A stretch of 64,000 nucleotides of DNA from Pseudomonadota bacterium (GTDB taxonomy: Bacteria > Pseudomonadota > Gammaproteobacteria > Pseudomonadales > Azotimanducaceae), in NCBI GenBank assembly GCA_022571415.1, contig JACZXW010000003.1:834-64833 (forward strand). Direction: 5' to 3'. Below, in pieces: positions 1 to 15,799 of this stretch (position 1 is its first letter; each line of letters begins with the position of its first letter). Below the pieces are notes generated by a model. That model did no database searches, was not told the DNA's origin, and saw nothing but the letters and a program-made list of their open reading frames with translations. The position numbers and the translations under genes are program-made.

Positions 1-13
1 GGTAGTCCGTGAT

Positions 14-616
14 ATGGAACAGGAAGCCTGTTTTATATTGATGCTATGGGCGATATCGCTCATGGGCTACAAAGCGCTGCAATCACAGCGGGAAAGGAAA
101 ATCCTGCAGCTGGATCTTATTCCCCTGACCCAGGGTACCAGTATCCTGCCGGAGGACAGTCGGGAGTATTCGAGGCCTATCCAGGCTCTACCGGAGTCGC
201 AGCAGGGATTTCTGTTACCGAGATCCTTGTTAACAGCACTACATCGTTTCCGTTCTACCAGGAATATCCAGGACGTGTCCAACTCAATCCGGGCAATATG
301 CAACTCTGAATCGGAAAGACTGGATTCGGAACTGTCAATGATCCGCTATATCGCCTGGGCAATCCCTTCAATCGGGTTCCTTGGCACCGTCCGCGGAATA
401 GGGCAGGCGTTGGGACAGGCTCACAAAGCTGTTATGGGAGATATAGCTGGCGTAACACAAAGTCTCGGCATTGCTTTTAATTCTACATTTGTTGCTCTGC
501 TGATCAGCATTCTCGTGATGTTCCTTCTGCACCAGCTTCAGCTGACACAAGAAAGACTGGTTCTTGATGCCGAGGATTATTGTGACAACCGACTTATCCA
601 ACACCTACAAACATAG
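14..616 (+). CDS. MotA/TolQ/ExbB-family proton-channel protein (possibly 5'-truncated by the window edge)
   Basis: 200-aa ORF with three predicted TM helices. The C-terminal half carries the family signature (IPSIGFLGTVRGIGQAL ... GIAFNSTFVALLISILV). The frame stays open back to nt 2, so the true start may lie upstream of the window. Confidence 0.8.
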   Translation: MEQEACFILMLWAISLMGYKALQSQRERKILQLDLIPLTQGTSILPEDSREYSRPIQALPESQQGFLLPRSLLTALHRFRSTRNIQDVSNSIRAICNSESERLDSELSMIRYIAWAIPSIGFLGTVRGIGQALGQAHKAVMGDIAGVTQSLGIAFNSTFVALLISILVMFLLHQLQLTQERLVLDAEDYCDNRLIQHLQT

Positions 617-627
617 CGAGACGTCAC

Positions 628-1938
628 TTGGCTCTTGGAATTATTGAGATTAACGACGCCGGCATACAGGTCGCCATAGAAAATGAAATCGTGACTACCA
701 GCCCGGGATTTGCCGTGTTGGATGGTGATCACCTGATGGTGGGTGAAGAAGCATTACAGAATGCCAGGCTACTACCACGCTGGACCAACAACCGATTCTG
801 GAATCAGCTCAACACAGATCCCATTGCTAACAGCACAGACAATGTTCGCCATCATGCTGATCTTGCATTCGCACATCTGGATTCCCTGTGGCAACCCATA
901 AGAGAGCAGGTTGACAGCGTCATTTTGCTGGTGCCGGCCTATTTTGAGCATTCTCAACTGGGACTCTTGTTAGGCATCGCCGGAGAAATTGAGATACCCG
1001 TTGTTGGCGTTGCTGACGTTTCGCTTATGGCAGCCTGCGATCTGCCGGTTAGATCGACTTGCCTGCATCTGGACGTGCACCTGCACAGAACAACACTCAC
1101 TAATCTGTCGAGCGGTAATACCCTGAACAGGACAAGGACCGCTACTATTACGGAAACTGGAATCTTCAAATTGTGGGATCGTTGGGCCAACATCATCGCC
1201 CACCAGTTCATCCAGAGTTCCCGATTTGACCCGATGCACCAGGCCCGCAGCGAACAGGCACTATTCAACCAGCTGCCTGCCTGGATAGAACAGCTCGGAA
1301 CTTCGCGGGGAAATCAGTTCGAACTGGATCTTGGGGACATCAATCACTCGGTATCAGTCTCCCGCGATCAACTCTTGACTGCTTGCGCCCAAATTTATCC
1401 GCTACTTGTGCAGTTCATACGCGCCCAGGCGACAACTGACGAGGTTTCGACCCTACTCCTGTCCCATCGATTTGCAGGATTCCCCGGATTGAAAGATTCT
1501 CTGGGGCTCATCAGTAATGTCGAGCTGGTAGAACTTGAAGCAGCGCAATCGATTATCAGCGCCTATGCACATGCTGACAGGATTATTTCGGGTGACGGTG
1601 CCATCAACCATATTACCCAGCTACCCATCAGCAACCGGACAAACAGTACCAATCTGTCCCAGGACAAGGCGCGGGTTACACATATGCTGATGGGTCATCA
1701 TGCCGTCGCCATCGGCAAATCTTTTCAGTTGTCCCGCAATTTTAACGAGGGCATACGAAAGGATCCCGAAAATCCCATCTGTACGCTCTATCCACGTGGT
1801 GATGACCTGTACGTGGATGTTCACACTGCTGCAGCCCTGAAGGTCAATGGAGAACCCGCAAGTGGGCAAATCCCTTTGAAACCCGGTGACATTCTTAACG
1901 TCGGCGAGTATGTCATCACCCTCATTTCGGCCTCCTAG
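628..1938 (+). CDS. Hsp70/actin-fold (ASKHA) NBD-like protein with C-terminal FHA-like domain
   Basis: 436-aa ORF with a TTG start 11 nt after the upstream stop. It has a DnaK-like segment VILLVPAYFEHSQLGLLLGIAGEIEIPVVGVADVSLMAA (compare DnaK VPAYFND..AG.IAGL..RIINEPTAAA). The last ~90 aa show an FHA-type pattern (AIGK ... KVNGEP ... LKPGDILNVGEYVITL). No signal peptide or TM helix. Confidence 0.55.
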   Translation: MALGIIEINDAGIQVAIENEIVTTSPGFAVLDGDHLMVGEEALQNARLLPRWTNNRFWNQLNTDPIANSTDNVRHHADLAFAHLDSLWQPIREQVDSVILLVPAYFEHSQLGLLLGIAGEIEIPVVGVADVSLMAACDLPVRSTCLHLDVHLHRTTLTNLSSGNTLNRTRTATITETGIFKLWDRWANIIAHQFIQSSRFDPMHQARSEQALFNQLPAWIEQLGTSRGNQFELDLGDINHSVSVSRDQLLTACAQIYPLLVQFIRAQATTDEVSTLLLSHRFAGFPGLKDSLGLISNVELVELEAAQSIISAYAHADRIISGDGAINHITQLPISNRTNSTNLSQDKARVTHMLMGHHAVAIGKSFQLSRNFNEGIRKDPENPICTLYPRGDDLYVDVHTAAALKVNGEPASGQIPLKPGDILNVGEYVITLISAS

Positions 1939-1948
1939 TTAACCTGCC

Positions 1949-3043
1949 ATGGTAAAGCGCCGCGAATTCAACGTCTTTACCCTTTCCTTTCTGGACGTCA
2001 TGTTTTGCGGATTCGGCTCTGTCATCCTGATCTTCATCATCATCAACCATTCAACAGAAACTACCTCCCAGGAAATAAACGCGAAGCTCCTCGCGGAAGT
2101 AAAAAAAATAGAACTACAGGTGGAGAACGAAACACTCAACCTAGTGGAGCTCCGAAATACGCTTGAAGAAGCCGAAGATGAAATCATTACCACAGAGGCT
2201 TTGGTGCTTGAAATTATCCTGGCGATTAAGGAACTGCAGGCGAAGATTCAGGAGCTGGCGGACTCAGGGGCGAGCCAAAAGGATAATATCGAAGCATTGA
2301 AATCCGAGCTTAAATTACTCGAGGAAGAAGCAGCAAGTCTGGAGGGGAGTGTCGCCGGTGCAGAATCCAGCGGGTCAAGCCTGCGCAGCATCGTTGGGCA
2401 AGGAGACCGGCAGTACCTCACTGGCCTTAAAATCGGCGGCCAGCACATACTGATTCTTCTCGATGCCTCCGCCAGCATGCTGGATAAGACGATTGTAAAC
2501 GTCATTATAAGACGCAACTTACCAGACGAAATTAAACTTCAATCAGAGAAATGGCAGCGTGCAATCCGAACCGTTGAATGGATCACCGCCAACATGCCAA
2601 GCGACGCCAACTTCCAGTTGTTTACTTTCAACACAGAGACAAAACCAGTGATTAAAGACACAGAAAATGAATGGCTGCGGGTGATCGAGAAAGCGGACAC
2701 TGATGAGGCACTGGCTAACCTGAAAAAAATAATCCCGTCCGGCGGCACCTCGTTGCATCATCCTTTTGCCGTCGCGAGAAACATGGAACCTCAACCGGAC
2801 AATATCTTCCTGATCATCGATAGCTTGCCAACCCAGGGATTTGAAAAACCAAAGAGAAGCGCCATCGAAAGCCGGGACCGTGTGGCTTTATTCAGTAGCG
2901 CCCTGGAGGAATTACCGGACGCGAGCCCGATCAACATCATCCTGTTTCCCATGGAGGGAGATCCGATTGCTGCACCATCTTACTGGCGCCTCGCACAAAT
3001 AACTGGCGGGTCATTCCTGGCACCACCGGATGATTGGCCCTGA
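1949..3043 (+). CDS. membrane-anchored coiled-coil vWA-domain protein with ExbD/TolR-like N-terminal TM segment
   Basis: 364 aa. A basic N-terminus is followed by the TM segment LSFLDVMFCGFGSVILIFIII and a ~130-aa E/L/K-rich heptad-like segment. The vWA domain has MIDAS DASAS (ILILLDASASM) plus SGGTS and LIIDSLP motifs. Confidence 0.75.
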   Translation: MVKRREFNVFTLSFLDVMFCGFGSVILIFIIINHSTETTSQEINAKLLAEVKKIELQVENETLNLVELRNTLEEAEDEIITTEALVLEIILAIKELQAKIQELADSGASQKDNIEALKSELKLLEEEAASLEGSVAGAESSGSSLRSIVGQGDRQYLTGLKIGGQHILILLDASASMLDKTIVNVIIRRNLPDEIKLQSEKWQRAIRTVEWITANMPSDANFQLFTFNTETKPVIKDTENEWLRVIEKADTDEALANLKKIIPSGGTSLHHPFAVARNMEPQPDNIFLIIDSLPTQGFEKPKRSAIESRDRVALFSSALEELPDASPINIILFPMEGDPIAAPSYWRLAQITGGSFLAPPDDWP

Positions 3044-4047
3044 TGCGTACTCGTCGACGGAATATAGAAGGAGCCAGCCTCTCATTTCTTGATGTTATAA
3101 GCTGTGGTTTTGGCGCCTTAATATTGATGTTAGTACTAACCAAGGTATTTGAACCAATCATTCTCGAAGACACCATTGAGAACCTGCAAGGTTACCTGGC
3201 CGCATTACAGCTGGATCTACTCGAAATTCGTGGAGACACCAAAGCATTGAACCGGGAAATGGTGAGGAAGGAAGACAAGCAGGAGGAGGAGCGCAAGGAA
3301 CTCTCCCGCCTGAAGGCAGACCTTTCCGCGCTGAAATCAAAGTTCGATGCCACCATTGACAAGAGCAAAGTTGACAATATTATCGAGGGCAGGCTGGCAA
3401 CGGCCAAGCAATCACTTACCGCCGAAATGGAAGCGCTGCTAGTCGACTACAAGAAAAGTCTGGACGACAACAAGATCGGCGGCATTCCAGTCGATAGTGA
3501 ATATATCATTTTTATCATCGACACCTCAGGCAGCATGTACAACTATGCGTGGCCTTTGGTGCTGCAAAAAGTATCTGAAACCCTGGACGTCTACCCTAAA
3601 TTGAAAGGCATCCAGGTCATGAATGATATGGGTAACTATATGTTCTCCCAGTACACCAACGACTGGATTCCGGACACGGCCGCCCGGCGGCGAGCGATTA
3701 TTGAAAGATTGCGAACCTGGAACGTATTCAGTAACTCCAGCCCCGTGGAGGGGATTACAAAAGCAATATCTACATTCTATAAACCTGGAAGAAAAATAAG
3801 CCTGTACGTATTCGGTGATGAATTCAGTGGTCGCTCAATCCAGCAGGTTGTCGATAAGATCGATAGAATCAACCGCGAAGATAAAGACGGTAACAGGATG
3901 GTCAGGATTCACGCCATCGGTTTCCCCGTACAATTCGCCAACCCTCCCCGGTACCAGGATACAGGCATTAAGTTCGCTATCCTGATGCGGACCCTGTGCG
4001 AGAGGAATGGCGGCACGTTTATTGGCCTGAATGATTTTCGATACTAG
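3043..4047 (+). CDS. second membrane-anchored coiled-coil vWA-domain protein (paralog of 1949..3043)
   Basis: The ATG at 3043 overlaps the upstream TGA (TGATG); the ORF track starts at the TTG at 3034. TM segment LSFLDVISCGFGALILMLVL, then a coiled-coil-like stretch. The vWA MIDAS is DTSGS (IIFIIDTSGSM), with LYVFGDEFSG later. Confidence 0.75.
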   Translation: MRTRRRNIEGASLSFLDVISCGFGALILMLVLTKVFEPIILEDTIENLQGYLAALQLDLLEIRGDTKALNREMVRKEDKQEEERKELSRLKADLSALKSKFDATIDKSKVDNIIEGRLATAKQSLTAEMEALLVDYKKSLDDNKIGGIPVDSEYIIFIIDTSGSMYNYAWPLVLQKVSETLDVYPKLKGIQVMNDMGNYMFSQYTNDWIPDTAARRRAIIERLRTWNVFSNSSPVEGITKAISTFYKPGRKISLYVFGDEFSGRSIQQVVDKIDRINREDKDGNRMVRIHAIGFPVQFANPPRYQDTGIKFAILMRTLCERNGGTFIGLNDFRY

Positions 4048-4158
4048 TGAGCTCTGTCACCGCTAATGTCCGGCTACAGAACTTGTACTTAATCAGAAGA
4101 TGGTTCATATTCATCTCGAAAAACTTACAGATAATTAAATCGTTGGATCTATTTTACA

Positions 4159-4779
4159 ATGACTATCAGTGACTACGAAATACAACCATTATTTGCTGAA
4201 CCCTACTTTAGGGCGGACATCGGTCATGCCATCACTGACGCGCAAATAAAGTATATTAAAAATCTAACCATGGTAAAAAACAGGGATAATCTGATCTCTG
4301 AAAATCTCTATATATTCAGAGAGCCGGAACTGCAGAGTATTACGGAAGCAGTGCAAGAAGCATTAGATCTTTTTACACGTGAAGTAATGGGTATTAAACA
4401 AAAACTCTACGTTACACAATCATGGTCTTTGACTAACAACCCCACGGTTAGTATGCATGGTCACTCTCATTCTAATTCCATTATATCCGGTTCTTTATAT
4501 TATTGTGATATGCCTTCTCCAGTGGCAAATATGATTTTTGACAGACATAAAACATACCAACAGCTAGAAATAAGACCGGAAGGAGATAAACAGAATATAT
4601 ATAACACGCCACTAAATATCCTTACTCCTAAAAAAAATGCGCTGTTTCTGTTTTCGTCCGGTATTCAACACTTTGTTGAAGCAAATTCCTCCAATCAACC
4701 AAGACACTCAATAGCATTTAATACTTTCATTAAAGGTAAATTGGGTAGTTATAGAGATGTGTCAGAGCTATCGTTGTGA
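4159..4779 (+). CDS. TIGR02466-like putative 2OG-Fe(II) oxygenase family protein (AT-rich gene)
   Basis: 206 aa. The motif SMHGHSHSNSIISGSLYY resembles the HxH...SG.YY pattern I associate with the TIGR02466/2OG-FeII_Oxy_5 family. Two 60-nt lines that I counted gave 35-38% GC. Confidence 0.5.
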   Translation: MTISDYEIQPLFAEPYFRADIGHAITDAQIKYIKNLTMVKNRDNLISENLYIFREPELQSITEAVQEALDLFTREVMGIKQKLYVTQSWSLTNNPTVSMHGHSHSNSIISGSLYYCDMPSPVANMIFDRHKTYQQLEIRPEGDKQNIYNTPLNILTPKKNALFLFSSGIQHFVEANSSNQPRHSIAFNTFIKGKLGSYRDVSELSL

Positions 4780-4860
4780 TTGCGTGAAATACAGACTTCT
4801 GCAACCCTTCACGAAAAGTTTCGAAATTCTCATGTAAATTGCAGCAATTAATCGTTCTTA

Positions 4861-4882
4861 CGCAATCTTATTGCGATTTTTT
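4861..4882 (+). terminator. putative rho-independent terminator
   Basis: CGCAAT-CTT-ATTGCG hairpin (6-bp stem) followed by ATTTTTT, downstream of the 4159..4779 gene. Confidence 0.45.
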
Positions 4883-4992
4883 CGAATGAAGTGACAGCCA
4901 TTGCCTCACAATCACAGCAGATCATCACCCACGCAATTTCGCGAGTACAGCCGTACACCCGGACCAGGCCCGCCGGGCTATAATTGCAAACC

Positions 4993-6795
4993 ATGATCAA
5001 CGCCATCGACATTCTGCAAAATACGTTCGGCTACGATCAATTCCGGCCACCACAAGAAGACATTATCGCAACCTTGATTGATGGCGGTGATGCGCTCGTT
5101 TTGATGCCCACTGGCGGCGGAAAATCTCTCTGTTACCAGATTCCCGCGATTGTCCGGAAAGGTTGCGGTATCGTTATATCGCCTTTGATTGCTTTGATGC
5201 AGGATCAGGTCGACTCCCTGCAAGAGCTTGGCATACGCGCCAGTTTTCTGAATTCTACGCTAGATCGACAGGACGAGATCCAGATAGAAAAATCCTTGCT
5301 TGAAGGACAACTGGACCTCTTGTATATCGCCCCGGAACGATTGATACAACCACGCACACTGTCCCTACTCAAACAATCCAGCATCAGCCTGTTTGCCATT
5401 GACGAGGCACATTGTGTCTCTCAATGGGGGCACGATTTTCGCACGGATTACCTCGAACTAAACCTATTGCATGAGGAATTCCCCGGTGTGCCACGCATCG
5501 CGCTTACGGCAACAGCTGACAAGAGAACCCGGGAAGAAATTATTTCCCGACTTGAATTGCGACAGGCCAGCCAGTATTTCGCCGGGTTCGATCGCCCCAA
5601 TATCCGCTACACCATCGCGATCAAGCACAATCCTCGAAACCAGCTTCTGCGTTTTCTAAAGAATGAGCACTTGAACGACGCCGGCATCATCTATTGCCTG
5701 TCACGCAAGAAAACCGAGGAAACTGCCACCTGGTTAAGCAAACAAGGCTTCGAAGCACTGCCCTATCACGCCGGTCTGTCTCCCAAGATACGGACCGAGC
5801 ACCAGTCCCGTTTTCTGCGTGATGATGGCGTAATCATCGTCGCAACGATTGCCTTCGGCATGGGCATCGATAAGCCGGATGTACGCTTTGTCGCGCATAT
5901 GGATCTGCCCAAGACGATCGAATCCTATTACCAGGAAACGGGGCGAGCCGGCCGGGATGGATTGCCTGCAGATGCCTGGATGGTTTACGGGTTACAGGAT
6001 GTGATTAAACTCCGCCAGATGCTCGATAGCGCGGGTGGCAGCGAGGAACATAAACGTCTTGAGGCGCACCGCCTCAATGCCATGCTGGCTCTCTGTGAAA
6101 TCACCTCGTGTCGACGGCATGCACTGCTCATGCATTTCGATGAGCAATCAGCAGAACATTGCGGTAACTGCGATACGTGTCTGACACCAGTCGATACCTG
6201 GGACGGAACCGAAGCCGCCCAAAAAGCGCTTAGCGTGGTGTTTCGAACGGGACAACGTTTTGGTGTCAATCACCTGATTGATGTGCTGCGTGGAATCGAG
6301 ACTGACAAGATTTTTCAATTCGATCATCACCAGTTGCAGGTGTACGGAATAGGCACGGAGATCGACAAGAACCAGTGGCACTCTGTCTTTCGACAACTGA
6401 TGGCACGAGGTTATATCAGCGTCGAGCTTGATCGCTTTGGCGGAATCAGGCTGGAAGAGAAATGCCGCGCGCTGCTGCGGGGTGAAGAAACGATCGAGTT
6501 GCGTCGGGACATCAAACAAAAGGTCGTTAAAAAACTGACCGTGACACCATTGCCTGAAGATATCGACGTCGGTATCTGGGAAGCCTTGAGAGAATGTCGA
6601 CGCCAACTGGCTGAGGCCCAAGGCGTCCCGCCTTTCGTTATTTTCCATGACACGACCTTGCGCGAGATGGCCGGCTCAATGCCGAAAACCCTCGACGAGT
6701 TTGGGCTTTTATCCGGCGTTGGTGAAAGAAAACGCGAGAAGTACGGTCCGGTGTTCCTCGAAGTGATCGCCAGCACGAATTCCGGTCAACTGTAA
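4993..6795 (+). CDS. recQ: ATP-dependent DNA helicase RecQ
   Basis: FGYDQFRPPQ, PTGGGKSLCYQIPA (Walker A), DEAHCVSQWGHDFR (DEAH box), a Zn-binding Cys cluster (CGNCDTC) and a C-terminal HRDC-like region. The ATG is at 4993; an alternative TTG lies at 4984. Confidence 0.95.
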   Translation: MINAIDILQNTFGYDQFRPPQEDIIATLIDGGDALVLMPTGGGKSLCYQIPAIVRKGCGIVISPLIALMQDQVDSLQELGIRASFLNSTLDRQDEIQIEKSLLEGQLDLLYIAPERLIQPRTLSLLKQSSISLFAIDEAHCVSQWGHDFRTDYLELNLLHEEFPGVPRIALTATADKRTREEIISRLELRQASQYFAGFDRPNIRYTIAIKHNPRNQLLRFLKNEHLNDAGIIYCLSRKKTEETATWLSKQGFEALPYHAGLSPKIRTEHQSRFLRDDGVIIVATIAFGMGIDKPDVRFVAHMDLPKTIESYYQETGRAGRDGLPADAWMVYGLQDVIKLRQMLDSAGGSEEHKRLEAHRLNAMLALCEITSCRRHALLMHFDEQSAEHCGNCDTCLTPVDTWDGTEAAQKALSVVFRTGQRFGVNHLIDVLRGIETDKIFQFDHHQLQVYGIGTEIDKNQWHSVFRQLMARGYISVELDRFGGIRLEEKCRALLRGEETIELRRDIKQKVVKKLTVTPLPEDIDVGIWEALRECRRQLAEAQGVPPFVIFHDTTLREMAGSMPKTLDEFGLLSGVGERKREKYGPVFLEVIASTNSGQL

Positions 6796-10710: not shown

Positions 10711-12114
10711 TTAGTGGTTGAATCGCGCTATATAGGTAACTGTCTGTTCTGCGCCTTTGGGCAGTTTTAAAGTATAAGCCACTGTGGCGCTGTCTAACTT
10801 TTGACCTTTGTGGCTCTCCTGGATGATGATCCAGTCACCGTTAAGCTTTTCTTTCACTACCAACTCGATCGCCTTGTCCTTGTGATTCTTCACTGTAATT
10901 GAGTAGCCTACTTCTACACCACGGTTCCCGAGCCGCCGGTATTCTGTCTGTTTTCTAATCGCAGTCACATCAAAAGCCCGCCCAACTTTAATCACGATGT
11001 CAGAGTTAACGGGAGTGTGTTGCACCCGGTCTTCACCCGCAAGTTGTAAAATACCCTCACTATCTGCTTTATAAACTCGTACTTTGCCTGCAGGTAGCGG
11101 TACATTGAGGTTATTTTTGCGTGTATTTCTGAAAGCCAGGATGACATCGGCTTTAAGATTCTGCATGCCCTGGGCCTGGTAGAGCACCACTTCGTTTTGC
11201 AGAACATAAGATTTTTCAATATCAATACCCTTGGCAGCCATCAGCCTCACTTGTTTTACCGAATTGGCTTCTAGCGTGGTGCGTCTTGGAAAATCATAAA
11301 CATGATACTCAAAGAATGACTGTCTACCGGGGACAACGGCTGCGAATTCCTGCGCTTCCAGAGTCGCTCTGTGTGCCATGACAGGTCGGCTCCTGATCCT
11401 TTGCACGTCTCCTGCAACCAGTTTTAGCTTGGCGTTCCTGTAGGCGGCGCCACTCTGGTTGACCAGCGTTACCCAACCATCCAGGTCTGCTTTAGACTCA
11501 TCGTTATTTAAGGTCAATATGTAATCTGTCTGCCACGATACATTTTCAGTGAGATAGGAAATTTGCAGGCCTTGCCGGTCCTGGACAGAATTTTCCATGG
11601 TCCATAGCAGTGTGGGGGTCGTGATGAGGTCATCCGGCAGATAGGCCAGCGAAATGATGCCTTCTGGTTCAATCTCGATTTCATCGCCAAATCTGACAAT
11701 TTCGGGATTAATCGACAGCAGGACGCCTTCACGAAGCATCTTCTCGTAACGGGTCCCTTCCAGCACGCTTCTGGAATATTTAAGTTTCCGACCGAGGAAT
11801 CTCTCCAGCAGCGTTTGTTTGTTTAACAAATCGTAACGATAACTTTGCTCGAAAACCTGCAGTCCTCTTTCATCTGCGGCAGATATCACTAGCACAGATG
11901 AAGGGTCAATACTCCGGGCGACATCCCTGAATTCGAGTTCAAATTCACCAATCGGCAGCAGGACATCCCGTTTTTCACGGATGATCGCAAAGTTGCCATT
12001 GTAAATCGTGACACTGACGTCAACCTGTTGTTCATCGCCCACGACTATTCGCTGACCCGCGGCAAGTGAAACCGAGAAATAGCAACAAATGATTATCTTT
12101 AACGTCCTGATCAT
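10711..12114 (-). CDS. secreted DUF4139-like protein
   Basis: 467 aa with an N-terminal signal-like hydrophobic segment. The N-terminal pattern VSVTIYNGNFAIIREKR and the overall length recall DUF4139/DUF4140 proteins. This call is from memory only. Confidence 0.55.
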   Translation of the reverse strand: MIRTLKIIICCYFSVSLAAGQRIVVGDEQQVDVSVTIYNGNFAIIREKRDVLLPIGEFELEFRDVARSIDPSSVLVISAADERGLQVFEQSYRYDLLNKQTLLERFLGRKLKYSRSVLEGTRYEKMLREGVLLSINPEIVRFGDEIEIEPEGIISLAYLPDDLITTPTLLWTMENSVQDRQGLQISYLTENVSWQTDYILTLNNDESKADLDGWVTLVNQSGAAYRNAKLKLVAGDVQRIRSRPVMAHRATLEAQEFAAVVPGRQSFFEYHVYDFPRRTTLEANSVKQVRLMAAKGIDIEKSYVLQNEVVLYQAQGMQNLKADVILAFRNTRKNNLNVPLPAGKVRVYKADSEGILQLAGEDRVQHTPVNSDIVIKVGRAFDVTAIRKQTEYRRLGNRGVEVGYSITVKNHKDKAIELVVKEKLNGDWIIIQESHKGQKLDSATVAYTLKLPKGAEQTVTYIARFNH

Positions 12115-12268
12115 CCAGGATTCATCCTACGCTGAAGCACCCAGTCGCCAAGGGTATCACACTCCCTGCCTTGCGCCCTCAAGGTAGGGTTAAGCATTGT
12201 TCCAACCTCAAAAGTGTGATTTATTAACTTTGTAATCCCAGCTGCCTTGGTGCCAAATACAGACAATT

Positions 12269-12736
12269 ATGACCTTGTATTCACTCACTTTGAACGGACA
12301 ACAGCGTACAGTAGACGCTGACGGCGAGACCAGTCTGTTGCAACTGCTGCGCAACGAATTCTGTCTCAACAGTTTAAAGTATGGCTGCGGTACGGAGCAG
12401 TGCGGTGCTTGTCGCGTACTTGTTGACGGCGAAGTCACCTGTGCCTGCACTCGAACCCTGGCGGAATCCAGCGGCACTGACGTCGTTACCGTCGAAGGAC
12501 TGTCAGAAGATCGCCAGCTGCATCCGTTACAAAGGAGCTTCCTGGATCTGAACGCCGGACAGTGCGGATACTGCCTGAGCGGGATACTGATCACTGCCTA
12601 CAAATTATTGCAGACGAACAGCAATCCGGACAGGTCAGAAATTGCCGCTGCCCTCAAGGACAACCTCTGCCGTTGTGGTGCCCACAATCGAATTATTGCT
12701 GCAATTGAAGCTAGCGCGAGCATGACCGATGAGTAG
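12269..12736 (+). CDS. (2Fe-2S)-binding small subunit of a second IorAB-like oxidoreductase
   Basis: GCGTEQCGACRVLVDGEVTCAC, QCGYCLSGILIT and CRCGAHNRI motifs. Confidence 0.9.
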   Translation: MTLYSLTLNGQQRTVDADGETSLLQLLRNEFCLNSLKYGCGTEQCGACRVLVDGEVTCACTRTLAESSGTDVVTVEGLSEDRQLHPLQRSFLDLNAGQCGYCLSGILITAYKLLQTNSNPDRSEIAAALKDNLCRCGAHNRIIAAIEASASMTDE

Positions 12737-14879
12737 TGAATTACCCGAAGCTTTGCAGCGCAACCCTCTGCTCTCCACCTGGCTGCGGTTCGACAATGAA
12801 AAAGTGCAGGTGCAAACGGGAAAAGTGGAATTAGGCCAGGGAATATCGACCGCCCTCGCCATGATCGCTGCTGAAGAACTCGATGTCTCCCTTGATCAGA
12901 TTGATATTCAGACAGGCAGGACCGATTCCGGTCCCAATGAATTCATGACGGCGGGTAGTATGTCCATCGAAGGAAGTGGCAGCGCGGTTCGCCAGGCTTG
13001 CGCAGATGCGCGAGCGCATTTTTTGAATCAGGCTGCCGGCTTGTTCGATGTCAGCCCCGAGGTGCTATCCATCTGCGACGGCGTCATTTCAAACCCGAAT
13101 GGCAACGAGCAGATTTCCTATTGGCAACTGCTTGATGGCAGCCAGCTGGATTTTGAAGCTAACGGGGAAGCTAAGCTGAAAGCAACTGGGCAGTACAAGC
13201 TGGTTGGTTATTCCACCACCCGCATCGACCTGTTAGCAAAGCTCACCGGCGAAACCGCGTTTATCCAGGATCTCAGATTCGAAAACGCAATGCATGCGAG
13301 GATTGTTCGTCCTCCGGGCATGGCATTTAGTCTCTCTTCCCTGGACGCCAGTCGCGTTGAATCAATGCCCGGTGTCTGCAAGGTGGTTATAGATGGTAAT
13401 TTTATCGGCGTCATCGCCGAAAACGAATTCACAGCGGTAGAGGCGAGAAAGAAACTGCATCAACTGGCCCGGTGGAAAACCAACCAGGCAGACAGGTTGC
13501 CGCCAGATGTCCCACGATTCCTGAAGGAAAATGTCGATGAAAGTTTGCTGGTCGTCGATGGCACCCCAACCGATTCCAGTATCCCACCGCTACTCGACGC
13601 AGCCGGTGGAATCCACTGCAGGGCAACTTACTTCAAGCCCTATCATCTCCATGGTTCAATCGGTCCCTCCGCCGCTATCGCTGAGTTTCGAGATAACCAC
13701 TTGATCATCCACTCCCACAGCCAGGGTCCTCATGTTATTCGAGCAGCCATTGCCCAGGCGCTGGGCATGGACCTCGATCAGGTCACCGTTATTCACGCTG
13801 AGAATGCCGGTTGCTACGGGCACAATGGTGCCGATGATGCAGCCATGGACGCCGCCATGCTGGCTCGCCATTACCCCGGGCACCCTATTTTTCTGCAATG
13901 GCAACGACAGGACGAACACCGGTGGGAACCGTTTAGCCCGGCAATGTTGATAGAACTGGACGCTTGTGTCATAGACGGTTCAATCAGGTTCTGGAATGCC
14001 GACATCTACAGTCAGACCCACATGGGCAGGCCGATTCCTTTCGGCAGTGTGACCAATCTCGTTGCCGCGTGGCAGAAGGCAGATCCGATGCCACGCGCCG
14101 AAGCGCGACCTGGCATTGTATTTCATGGTGGCATTCACAGAAATGCCGATCCCTGCTATCAAATTCCTGAAAAAAGGATCGTCAAGAATCTTGTTAAGGA
14201 CCAGAAGGTAAGAACGTCTTCGACACGCTCTCTCGGCGCCTTTGCTAATGTATTTGCCATCGAATCATTTATGAACGAACTGGCATATGCATCCGGCCAG
14301 GATGCTGTGCAATTCCGGCTCAACCACCTGCGGGATGATCGAGCCAGGGCGGTCATAATAAGCATGGCTGCGCGCCTGAGAGGATATCGGCTAAAGGAAC
14401 GTGACGGATGGCTATATGGCCGTGGAATCGCCTTCGCCCGATATAAGAACAGTAAATGCTATGCCGCTGTGGGTGTCATCCTGTGCATCAACCAGGAAAC
14501 TTTTGAAATCAGCCTGGTGCACGCGGTCATTTCAGCCGATGCCGGGCAGGTTATCGATAAAGACGGACTAACGAATCAATTGGAGGGCGGATTTATCCAG
14601 GCGGCAAGCTGGACCCTGAAGGAAGCTGTGCTATTCGGCGAATATGCATCTATCAGTGACGACTGGGAGAGCTACCCGATTCTCACCTTCCCGGAAATTC
14701 CCACGGTAGAAACGCTCATCCTTGATCAACCCCAGGAACCGAGCCTTGGTGCAGGAGAAGCGACCCAGGGGCCGACTCCGGCAGCAATCAGCAACGCCAT
14801 TTTCGACGCAACCGGCATTCGCATCCGCGAGATACCTTTTCTTCCTGAGAAACTAAGAAGCCTGGCGCTTAAAGATTAG
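12729..14879 (+). CDS. molybdopterin-binding large subunit (aldehyde oxidase/xanthine dehydrogenase family), no Tat signal seen
   Basis: 716 aa. The start overlaps the small-subunit gene by 8 nt. VELGQGISTALAMIAAEEL and GAGEATQGPTPAAISNAIFDATGIRIR are typical of this family. Confidence 0.85.
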   Translation: MSSELPEALQRNPLLSTWLRFDNEKVQVQTGKVELGQGISTALAMIAAEELDVSLDQIDIQTGRTDSGPNEFMTAGSMSIEGSGSAVRQACADARAHFLNQAAGLFDVSPEVLSICDGVISNPNGNEQISYWQLLDGSQLDFEANGEAKLKATGQYKLVGYSTTRIDLLAKLTGETAFIQDLRFENAMHARIVRPPGMAFSLSSLDASRVESMPGVCKVVIDGNFIGVIAENEFTAVEARKKLHQLARWKTNQADRLPPDVPRFLKENVDESLLVVDGTPTDSSIPPLLDAAGGIHCRATYFKPYHLHGSIGPSAAIAEFRDNHLIIHSHSQGPHVIRAAIAQALGMDLDQVTVIHAENAGCYGHNGADDAAMDAAMLARHYPGHPIFLQWQRQDEHRWEPFSPAMLIELDACVIDGSIRFWNADIYSQTHMGRPIPFGSVTNLVAAWQKADPMPRAEARPGIVFHGGIHRNADPCYQIPEKRIVKNLVKDQKVRTSSTRSLGAFANVFAIESFMNELAYASGQDAVQFRLNHLRDDRARAVIISMAARLRGYRLKERDGWLYGRGIAFARYKNSKCYAAVGVILCINQETFEISLVHAVISADAGQVIDKDGLTNQLEGGFIQAASWTLKEAVLFGEYASISDDWESYPILTFPEIPTVETLILDQPQEPSLGAGEATQGPTPAAISNAIFDATGIRIREIPFLPEKLRSLALKD

Positions 14880-14883
14880 AAGA

Positions 14884-14939
14884 GGGACAGTATACTTGAC
14901 TCACTCTCTATGAAGATCAGGAATTAAGTATACTGTCCC
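14884..14939. promoter_or_regulatory. perfect 14-bp inverted repeat (GGGACAGTATACTT / AAGTATACTGTCCC) with a 28-nt spacer
   Basis: Read directly from the sequence: arms at 14884..14897 and 14926..14939. Each arm contains the 8-bp palindrome AGTATACT. The 3' arm ends 2 nt before the GGAG Shine-Dalgarno of the 14951 gene. Confidence 0.6.
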
Positions 14940-14950
14940 CGGAGAAACTT

Positions 14951-15799
14951 ATGGCATCAGCAAAATTCAACCGCACGTCGCAGGATGTCGGCAATATCCT
15001 GGCCATGGAACATGTCAATGTCACTGTTCCGGATCAATTGCTGGCAACCTTTTTCTATGTCAACGGACTTGGCTTTACGCGAGATCCCTACATGGATTTC
15101 GGGCCCTTCAATGTCTGGATCAATGTGGGTAACCAGCAATTTCACCTGCCAACGGGTGAACCGCAAGTGCTACGCGGGACAGTTGGCGTGGTCGTCCCCA
15201 GCTTGTCTGAATTAGAAAAGAGGTTAACCCGGGTTGCACGGCGCCTGGAAGACACTCGATTCAAATTCAGGGTGAACAGGGGAACTATTGATGTCACCTG
15301 CCCCTGGGGAAACAGGATCCGCTGTCATCCACCTGGAAAATTCGGTCACATGACCCTGGGTATCCCCTATGTGGAATTCAAAGTGCCACCGCGTACCGCC
15401 ACCGGTATCGCCCGTTTCTACCAACAGGTATTTAGCGTTTCTGCTGTTGCTCGCAAGGGGATCTGTGAGGTCGCTGTTGGTCAGGGTCAGATAATCAGGT
15501 TCAAAGAGTCAGCAAGGCCAGAGGCCCACTACGACGGCCACCACATTGCCATCTATGTGATGAACTTCTCGGGGCCACATAGCTATCTCAAGAAAAAGGG
15601 ACTAATCACAGAGGAGTCAGATGAAAACCAGTACCGGTTCCAGATCATCATTGACCCCAATTCAGGTAAACCGCTTTTCGAAATTGAGCACGAGGTCAGA
15701 AGTCTGCATCACCCCATGTATGGCAGAAATCTGGTAAACCGAAACGCGACCCAATCGTTTTTTGGATACCAGCATGGACGGGACGCATTTAGACCTTAG
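14951..15799 (+). CDS. hypothetical protein (possible VOC/glyoxalase-fold)
   Basis: 282-aa ORF with GGAG upstream. The N-terminal segment MEHVNVTVPDQLLATFFYVNGLGF resembles a VOC beta-alpha-beta-beta-beta start. The family assignment is weak. Confidence 0.3.
   Translation: MASAKFNRTSQDVGNILAMEHVNVTVPDQLLATFFYVNGLGFTRDPYMDFGPFNVWINVGNQQFHLPTGEPQVLRGTVGVVVPSLSELEKRLTRVARRLEDTRFKFRVNRGTIDVTCPWGNRIRCHPPGKFGHMTLGIPYVEFKVPPRTATGIARFYQQVFSVSAVARKGICEVAVGQGQIIRFKESARPEAHYDGHHIAIYVMNFSGPHSYLKKKGLITEESDENQYRFQIIIDPNSGKPLFEIEHEVRSLHHPMYGRNLVNRNATQSFFGYQHGRDAFRP

Follow-up and report, generated by a model that had tools for sequence, protein, structure and literature searches.

Background

A small number of machines, the 5:2 motors of the MotA/ExbB type, carry energy from the inner membrane to the rest of the cell envelope, and each newly understood motor (Tol, GldLM, Zorya) has revealed new biology. 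The subject here is a cluster of four genes, designated F, G, H and I, at the start of a 64,000-nucleotide stretch of DNA (the window) of the 66,686-bp contig JACZXW010000003.1, in the metagenome-assembled genome (MAG) of an uncultured Pseudomonadota bacterium (GCA_022571415.1, family Azotimanducaceae). The public annotation of the encoded proteins is "hypothetical" or "VWA domain-containing". F belongs to the MotA/TolQ/ExbB family, H and I are paralogous membrane-anchored vWA proteins, and G is a cytoplasmic protein with an Hsp70-like fold. Our best guess is that the cluster encodes a proton-driven force transducer of the cell envelope.

The closest described systems are the TPH-vWA/TolQ-like motors, which were predicted in PMC12204202 (Mol Biol Evol 2025, 'Origin and Evolution of Bacterial Periplasmic Force Transducers', Fig. 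4c-d). In that work, vWA homologues tethered by a transmembrane helix tightly co-occur with tolQ homologues as heterologous pairs, with no tolR/exbD. The tether is a helix of the transpore type that has a conserved Asp and lacks the SHLS motif; the pentamer protein has a conserved ring of Thr residues. The vWA proteins were placed as the inner subunits of a 5:2 motor from synteny and from AlphaFold 3 models of the prototype, which is from Idiomarina (loihiensis). TPH-vWA proteins occur in Proteobacteria and Verrucomicrobia, and the authors report that the function is unknown.

The locus in the window shows every testable defining feature of the TPH-vWA class and its phyletic spread, with the Idiomarina prototype compared by description only. 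An earlier, sequence-only reading of the window had taken the cluster to be a stator driven by the proton motive force, with inner subunits tipped by vWA domains. That reading is supported here and is the same as the proposal in PMC12204202. It had also named no characterised system of such a composition. This still holds, but the core was described computationally in 2025. A search of the literature beyond that paper found no further description of such a locus.

Gene order and conservation of the cluster

The four open reading frames are all on the + strand, at 14..616 (F), 628..1938 (G), 1949..3043 (H) and 3043..4047 (I). F and G are separated by 11 nt and G and H by 10 nt, and the stop codon of H overlaps the start codon of I by 1 nt (TGATG); the tight co-directional spacing reported from the sequence alone was borne out. 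F is cut by the window start. The ATG at position 14 is the internal Met65 of a 264-aa protein with its true start 179 nt before the window, and the part within the window (1..616, + strand) is the 3' portion of the gene, its last 200 codons. Two metagenome scaffolds are near-identical to the window: over ~4 kb, L001 has 8 mismatches and L002 has 6. Position 7084 of L001 matches window position 1, and the full-length F gene is at L001 6905..7699. L001 also carries further genes of the same module upstream of F, as had been anticipated from the truncation. The four genes are the conserved core, or tail, of a larger module and not a complete operon. Scanning 1..5200 for promoters and terminators gave counts not above those in shuffled sequence.

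A scan with the G profile, taking one genome per species, found 80 loci. Most are in MAGs of marine Pseudomonadales, mainly OM182, Azotimanducaceae, Porticoccaceae and Cellvibrionaceae, and one is from a cultured isolate, Biformimicrobium. In essentially every adequately flanked locus among these ~80, down to ~30% identity in G, the genes have the order A-B-C-D-(E)-F-G-H-I on one strand, with median gaps along A to I of 20, 33, −1, −4, 13, 14, 1 and −1 nt. H and I co-occur in every locus. The F-G-H-I order first noted in the window is thus syntenic across ~80 species-level loci, and it is found again in the Verrucomicrobiota.

The H family comprises 1,324 clusters at 50% identity with E≤1e-3 and 276 with E≤1e-30, and full-length matches to H reach down to 30% identity. 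Cultured Cellvibrionales that carry it include Microbulbifer spp., Simiduia, Gilvimarinus, Marinibactrum and Sessilibacter. In Microbulbifer aggregans (CP014143) the locus is at ~1.72–1.74 Mb. Carriers in the Verrucomicrobiota include Opitutaceae and Candidatus Pelagisphaera phototrophica (Opitutales). Among the H-family cluster members that were looked up, none is Idiomarina by name.

The content of the cluster differs between lineages. The Pelagisphaera locus (L087) has F-G-H-I and divergent lipoproteins, with none of A to E; a 496-aa protein encoded there aligns with the G profile (hhalign 98.9%, E=4e-17). Locus L088 has A, B, C, D, F, H and I, with no G. Loci L090 and L092 encode a kinase, a PEGA/FGE protein, a small protein, F, G (with a Pfam FHA match), H, I and a small unannotated protein, and the Microbulbifer locus (L086) has a C protein that lacks the kinase domain. 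F, H and I are the invariant core, G is usually present, and the other genes are lineage-dependent.

Gene F encodes a member of the MotA/TolQ/ExbB superfamily

F matches the Pfam family MotA_ExbB (PF01618) with E=7e-15 (55.4 bits against a cut-off of 22.9), and the full-length protein gives the same outcome, in agreement with the first assignment of this gene to the MotA/TolQ/ExbB-type channel proteins. Its scores are far under the NCBIfam cut-offs for TolQ (E=1e-7, 32 bits against 221), for ExbB (22 bits against 135) and for MotA proper. Judged by these profile scores, F is a member of the superfamily and not TolQ or ExbB proper.

The signature motifs of F, IPSIGFLGTVRGIG and AFNSTFVALLISI, with conserved Thr residues, sit in the last two transmembrane helices. 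These motifs (IPSIGFlGTVRGIG and AFNSTFvALlISI, with GFLGTV and the NST Thr) are kept in at least 90% of 78 orthologues, and we equate them with the helices that form the Thr ring in ExbB and TolQ. Full-length F has four hydrophobic segments, at residues ~13–31, 68–84, 174–194 and 217–235, of which only two pass a strict hydropathy threshold. Four segments suggest a MotA-like topology with four transmembrane helices, not the three of ExbB/TolQ.

Genes H and I encode paralogous membrane-anchored vWA proteins

H (1949..3043, + strand) encodes a protein of 364 aa with a basic N-terminus, a transmembrane helix, a stalk and a vWA domain. I (3043..4047, + strand) encodes a 334-aa paralog of H; an alignment of the two profiles with hhalign gives 99.3% and E=1.6e-20. 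The one transmembrane helix of H (1988..2044) contains an invariant Asp16 (1994..1996), and that of I (3085..3141) an invariant Asp17 (3091..3093). The helix of both proteins carries the invariant sequence (S)FLD(V/I)xxCGFGA, and in H the residues F14, L15, D16, C20, G21, F22 and G23 are all invariant. Three or four Arg/Lys residues precede the helix and one follows it, a positive-inside bias; because the cluster of Arg/Lys is before the helix, it points to an N-in orientation.

The stalk of H (~2060..2368) has a heptad periodicity with z=6.1 relative to shuffled sequences, and that of I (~3142..3492) has z=3.5. An AlphaFold 2 (AF2) model of H places helices in the stalk at residues 41–71, 82–105 and 111–136. 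The vWA domain of H (~2426..3040) matches Pfam VWA_3 above the cut-off (E=1e-6), and VWA_2 as well. This part of the AF2 model has a predicted local distance difference test score (pLDDT) of 85–95, and its top 50 Foldseek matches in the PDB are all vWA domains. The vWA domain of I (~3496..4044) has a weak Pfam VWA match of its own (E=0.045), and the assignment rests on homology to H. These results agree with the description of both genes, made from the sequence alone, as paralogs with a transmembrane helix, a coiled-coil-like region and a vWA domain. The metal ion-dependent adhesion site (MIDAS) of H consists of DASAS (2462..2476), GGTS and a downstream Asp, all of them conserved. In I, DTSGS (3520..3534) and GDE are present, and IDTSGSM and VfGDeF are conserved.

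The anchors of H and I had been called ExbD/TolR-like. This holds for a single N-in transmembrane helix with an invariant Asp, but not for homology. Pfam ExbD has no match to H or I at E≤1, and jackhmmer searches seeded with E. coli ExbD and TolR found no match in any locus. Nor was a canonical ExbD/TolR gene detected within 10 kb in any locus. By sequence, the likeness to ExbD/TolR is a resemblance in function only. It is drawn from the single N-in helix, the invariant Asp, the adjacent gene for the pentamer protein and the lack of another partner nearby.

These features bear on an alternative in which the cluster is not a motor at all. H and I would be membrane-anchored vWA scaffolds of the BatA/BatB kind with TPR and lipoprotein partners, and F would be an unrelated or co-regulated channel. 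Foldseek matches of H do include BatB (3ibs), Bat-type operons likewise pair two vWA paralogs with TPR proteins, and homology of the H/I anchor to ExbD is not detectable by sequence. However, there is no MoxR ATPase or DUF58 gene at the locus, and the invariant membrane-embedded Asp of both H and I would be otherwise unexplained. F is always adjacent to H and I, with no other ExbD-like partner gene nearby, and F, H and I remain together where G and other genes have been lost. A Bat-like scaffold is an improbable explanation on this evidence.

Gene G encodes a protein with an Hsp70 fold and an FHA-like domain

G (628..1938, + strand) encodes a 436-aa cytoplasmic protein, with no transmembrane helix or signal peptide predicted. 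Sequence searches with phmmer and with profiles found no significant match to G in Pfam, NCBIfam, PADLOC or the PDB, and an hhalign comparison with DnaK gave a probability of 9%; at the sequence level only the VPAYF block resembles DnaK. The protein was identified only by comparison of folds. An AF2 model built on 39 homologues has a pLDDT of 89, and its top Foldseek matches in the PDB are all nucleotide-binding domains of Hsp70/Hsp110 (E~1e-15, template-modelling scores of 0.66–0.70, probability 1.00).

The Hsp70-fold part of G spans residues 1 to ~335 (628..1632). The phosphate loop of Hsp70, DxGGGT, is replaced by D-x-H-L-H-R (D-V-H-L-H-R in the window protein), and because this glycine-rich loop is replaced, ATPase activity of G is doubtful. 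Two invariant His-rich motifs, RHHADLAFAH and HLDxHLHR (residues 74–84 and 147–155; window 847..879 and 1066..1092), occupy the places of Hsp70 nucleotide-binding elements, and they might bind metal or sense protons.

G has no Hsp70 substrate-binding domain and has an FHA-like beta domain in its place, formed by the C-terminal ~90 residues (~350–436; 1675..1935). Pfam FHA matches 5 of the 39 G homologues, with a best E=1.9e-8, and the window protein itself is sub-threshold. Yop-YscD_cpl, a phospho-independent FHA model of the YscD type, matches three of the 39, and a search of the PDB with the G profile gives weak FHA matches. In the window's lineage the Gly-Arg and Ser-x-x-His residues that bind phosphothreonine are missing from this domain, and Asn-Gly alone is conserved. 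Fold comparison and the Pfam matches together uphold the earlier view of this gene as a degenerate Hsp70 fold with an FHA-like end.

The wider module

Five genes precede F in the module of the window's lineage. The first, A, encodes an acidic, Pro/Ser-rich lipoprotein-like protein, and B encodes a lipoprotein with a glycine-rich C-terminal region. C (L001 2106..4388) encodes a kinase-like domain, a transmembrane helix, periplasmic TPR repeats and a C-terminal beta domain, and D encodes a transmembrane helix, at least four PEGA repeats and a domain of the FGE-sulfatase fold. E (L001 6450..6767), directly upstream of the window, encodes a ~100-aa secreted protein that ends in PSEeIsaDnAVpFPVDI. 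The body of E is variable, and its acidic C-terminal peptide is strongly conserved. In 46 of 69 loci the peptide was detected between D and F, and it recurs in the distant locus L092 as ISFPVDI; it may serve as a ligand for a MIDAS or as a peptide for strand addition.

Two further lipoprotein genes, X (~212 aa) and Y (~205–233 aa), are linked to the cluster (L006 1..1210, − strand). In the window's clade they are divergent and upstream of A (X in 40 of 52 loci, Y in 38 of 52), while in a Cellvibrionales-like clade they are directly after I on the same strand (L074-L085). Because the linkage survives this rearrangement, it can be argued that X and Y share a function with the cluster. No X or Y homologues were detected in the verrucomicrobial loci with hmmsearch. 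For none of A, B, E, X or Y does a match in Pfam or NCBIfam exceed the cut-off of the family concerned. The absence of TonB, TolA, OmpA/MotB-domain and Zorya effector genes, first remarked for the cluster in the window, extends to the 7 kb upstream.

The best NCBIfam match of D is GldK/PorK (E=2e-23), and GldJ is also matched. The FGE-fold domain presumably lacks the catalytic Cys pair. The GldK match bears on a more specific version of the envelope-machine explanation, an apparatus for surface motility or secretion like gliding and the type IX secretion system (T9SS). F, H and I would then correspond to GldL/GldM, and D and the lipoproteins to the GldK/GldN ring. Long periplasmic arms, as predicted for H and I, and several lipoproteins would suit such an apparatus. 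The hosts of the cluster, which include marine Cellvibrionales (among them Microbulbifer), other Pseudomonadales and Opitutales, are presumably polysaccharide degraders. However, the match of D to GldK is far under the family cut-off (83 bits against 350), no secretin, SprA-like translocon, outer-membrane barrel or cargo signal was seen, and D is missing from the verrucomicrobial loci. This version is unlikely, and the analogy of a T9SS-like motor and ring that the GldK-like fold of D offers is attractive but unproven.

Joint decay of a kinase and its possible FHA target

In the kinase-like domain of C, HRDxKxxN is replaced by HGHLHPGN and DFG by GFS in the clade of the window. The domain still matches Pfam Pkinase (E=3e-15), and from these motifs C of this clade is a pseudokinase. 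The HRD Asp is kept in 4 of 52 aligned kinase-like C domains, and both catalytic Asp residues (HRD and DFG) are kept in three loci only, L065, L090 and L092. These are exactly the loci in which G keeps the FHA motifs GVSRxHC and S(T/Y)GxF(V/L)N. A genuine FHA motif is present in none of the 64 other C-bearing loci, of which 51 have a degenerate kinase-like domain and 13 have none; two regular-expression matches among the 64 were discarded, as they were at the wrong position. The loci in this comparison are related to one another, and the pattern is not a statistic of independent samples. The pattern of motifs suggests an ancestral phosphorylation link from the kinase to the FHA domain, which would have been lost in the window's lineage.

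A different relationship between these two proteins, in which the C pseudokinase would be an obligatory partner of the FHA domain of G by analogy with EssB/EssC of the type VIIb secretion system, was also considered. It was weakened, and the joint decay replaced it. The kinase domain is missing in 11 of 61 loci checked (including Biformimicrobium) and in the Microbulbifer locus, with G retained.

The kinase is also part of an argument for defence. In a Zorya-like system for anti-phage or envelope surveillance, the vWA arms would sense damage and G would signal it to the cytoplasm. F gives weak matches to ZorA (E~1e-3, PADLOC), and the kinase domain of C matches the PD-T4-6, MkoA and mad6 models. 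Kinase, FHA, vWA and FGE-fold domains are frequent in conflict systems (PMC7159879). However, the matches of C are generic to the kinase family, the kinase is catalytically dead in the window's lineage, and no nuclease, helicase, TIR, protease or other effector is encoded in any locus. Apart from the weak ZorA matches to F, there is no defence-specific match in PADLOC. The cluster is present lineage-wide, and no copies of it were found on plasmids or phages. Flanking genes are common to about half of the 52 loci compared, which suggests that the cluster is in a stable chromosomal position. Defence was rejected as the main explanation on the lack of effectors, of a specific PADLOC match and of plasmid or phage copies and on the stable position, and a surveillance system of this kind is very unlikely. 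Housekeeping work in the envelope is most likely instead, as the lineage-wide presence, the shared flanks, the lack of effectors and the lack of copies on mobile elements all favour it.

Neighbouring genes

After I there is a gap of 111 nt and then a 2OG-Fe(II) oxygenase gene (4159..4779; Pfam 2OG-FeII_Oxy_5, TIGR02466 family). A 603-aa helicase, RecQ-like by eye, is encoded at 4984..6795 of the window. Neither is a conserved neighbour of the cluster – the oxygenase gene was found in one locus and the RecQ-like gene in three. A Peptidase_M48 gene lies a few genes downstream in three differing loci (L086 13610..15061, L089 12982..13779 and L092 10932..11750). In L090, an adjoining gene (11023..14964) encodes a 1,313-aa protein with Pkinase, Laminin_G_3, FGE-sulfatase and C-type lectin domains, a second pairing of kinase and FGE at that locus. 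The contigs of L055 and L082, with a cluster of the gammaproteobacterial type, were assigned to MAGs named Candidatus Fonsibacter ubiquis and Flavobacterium sp., probably through contamination in binning and not because those taxa carry it.

A proposed envelope machine

On balance, the cluster is taken as the core of a cell-envelope machine, built on an ion-driven motor of the MotA/ExbB type in which H and I are arms that carry vWA domains. The observations behind this are the gene order, the domain folds, the conservation of the Asp, Thr and MIDAS residues and the synteny across phyla.

From these we infer a 5:2 stoichiometry. Five copies of F would make up the outer ring in the inner membrane. 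The two helices inside it would come from H and I, which probably pair as a heterodimer and would have the role of ExbD, TolR or MotB in the known motors. The invariant Asp of each would be the proton-binding site. The stalks of ~80–100 residues, roughly 12–15 nm if they are coiled coils, would hold two vWA heads in the periplasm. There the MIDAS sites may bind an acidic partner in a metal-dependent way, with the lipoprotein A, the C-terminal peptide of E and D as candidates. The arms would be turned or pulled by the flow of protons and would transmit force or a conformational signal to the TPR, PEGA-FGE and lipoprotein partners. In the Gammaproteobacteria, the accessory parts would be the lipoproteins X, Y, A and B, the TPR protein C, the PEGA and FGE-fold protein D and the secreted protein E.

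G would sit at the cytoplasmic face as a non-canonical scaffold or regulator, with its Hsp70 and FHA folds, and gate the motor. In some lineages it may be coupled to the C kinase through phosphothreonine, a coupling that would have decayed in the lineage of the window.

Some observations weigh against this proposal. G is missing from at least one variant locus (L088) and is not essential to the core. The confidence of AF2 in the stalk of H is low when the protein is modelled as a monomer. A search of the PDB with a 43-residue profile of the H/I anchors returned none of ExbD, TolR and MotB. Lastly, the MIDAS of I has no clear conserved Thr. The sites of both proteins had been described from the sequence as intact, which is true of the DASAS and DTSGS motifs and less certain for the whole site of I.

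A further proposal, held more tentatively and at a little less than an even chance, is that the cluster represents a class of ion-driven 5:2 envelope machine with a new function. The inner subunits that rotate would also be the force-transducing arms and would end in metal-dependent adhesion domains, and the protein with the Hsp70 and FHA folds would gate or scaffold the motor, originally under the control of a Ser/Thr kinase. If this is true, motors of the MotA/ExbB type have a new physiological role beside those of Mot, Ton, Tol, Agl and Zorya, and a new way of being regulated. With at least 1,300 clusters at 50% identity, the H family spans two phyla and occurs in easily grown marine hosts (Microbulbifer, Simiduia, Gilvimarinus), so the predictions for the Asp, the Thr ring and the MIDAS are open to mutation.

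Comparison with known systems

The Ton and Tol systems (ExbB-ExbD-TonB and TolQ-TolR-TolA) share with this locus an outer protein with GxxGTV, single-pass N-in inner subunits with an Asp in the membrane, and a reach across the periplasm towards partners in the outer membrane. They differ in several respects. The locus has no ExbD/TolR periplasmic domain, TonB or TolA; the force-transducing arm is part of the inner subunit itself and has a vWA domain at its end; and F has four hydrophobic segments, compared with three.

The Agl/Glt machine of Myxococcus (AglR-AglQ-AglS/Glt) reportedly combines a TolQ-like protein with two TolR-like paralogs, and is said to include the vWA adhesin CglB and several lipoproteins. 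The vWA protein there is a separate outer-membrane lipoprotein and not a subunit of the motor, and no Glt homologues were seen here.

GldL-GldM and PorL-PorM, with the GldK/PorK ring, are also a 5:2 motor with a long periplasmic arm, which reaches to a ring of FGE-fold proteins, and the FGE domain of D is nearest to GldK in NCBIfam. However, neither GldL nor GldM is a MotA/ExbB or vWA protein by sequence, D is a PEGA protein anchored in the inner membrane and not a lipoprotein, and there is no T9SS translocon.

Zorya (ZorA-ZorB) is likewise a 5:2 motor of the MotA/MotB type put to a use other than motility, with a long helical extension. In Zorya, this extension is a cytoplasmic tail on ZorA, ZorB binds peptidoglycan, and ZorC/D/E are effectors; none of these was found here. 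PADLOC found no ZorB peptidoglycan-binding domain and no ZorC/D, ZorE or ZorF/G effectors.

In the PilM-PilN-PilO system, a cytoplasmic protein of the actin/Hsp70 superfamily is encoded directly before two paralogous bitopic coiled-coil proteins, and the arrangement of G, H and I is analogous. There is no match in sequence or fold, as Foldseek places G with Hsp70 and the heads of H and I are vWA domains.

Judged by predicted gene content, the locus does not belong to the Ton, Tol, Mot, Zorya, Bat or T9SS systems, because the defining partners of each are absent. It belongs closest to the TPH-vWA motors described at the outset, and the motor core has already been published as a prediction. The text of PMC12204202 contains no Hsp70, FHA domain or kinase (with 0 occurrences of 'Hsp70' and of 'kinase') and no PEGA-FGE or lipoprotein genes. 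What is added here is the partner G, the wider module and the joint decay of the kinase and the FHA domain. G, together with the joint loss of its FHA motifs and the kinase residues, points to a layer of cytoplasmic control that has not been described for other motors of this type.

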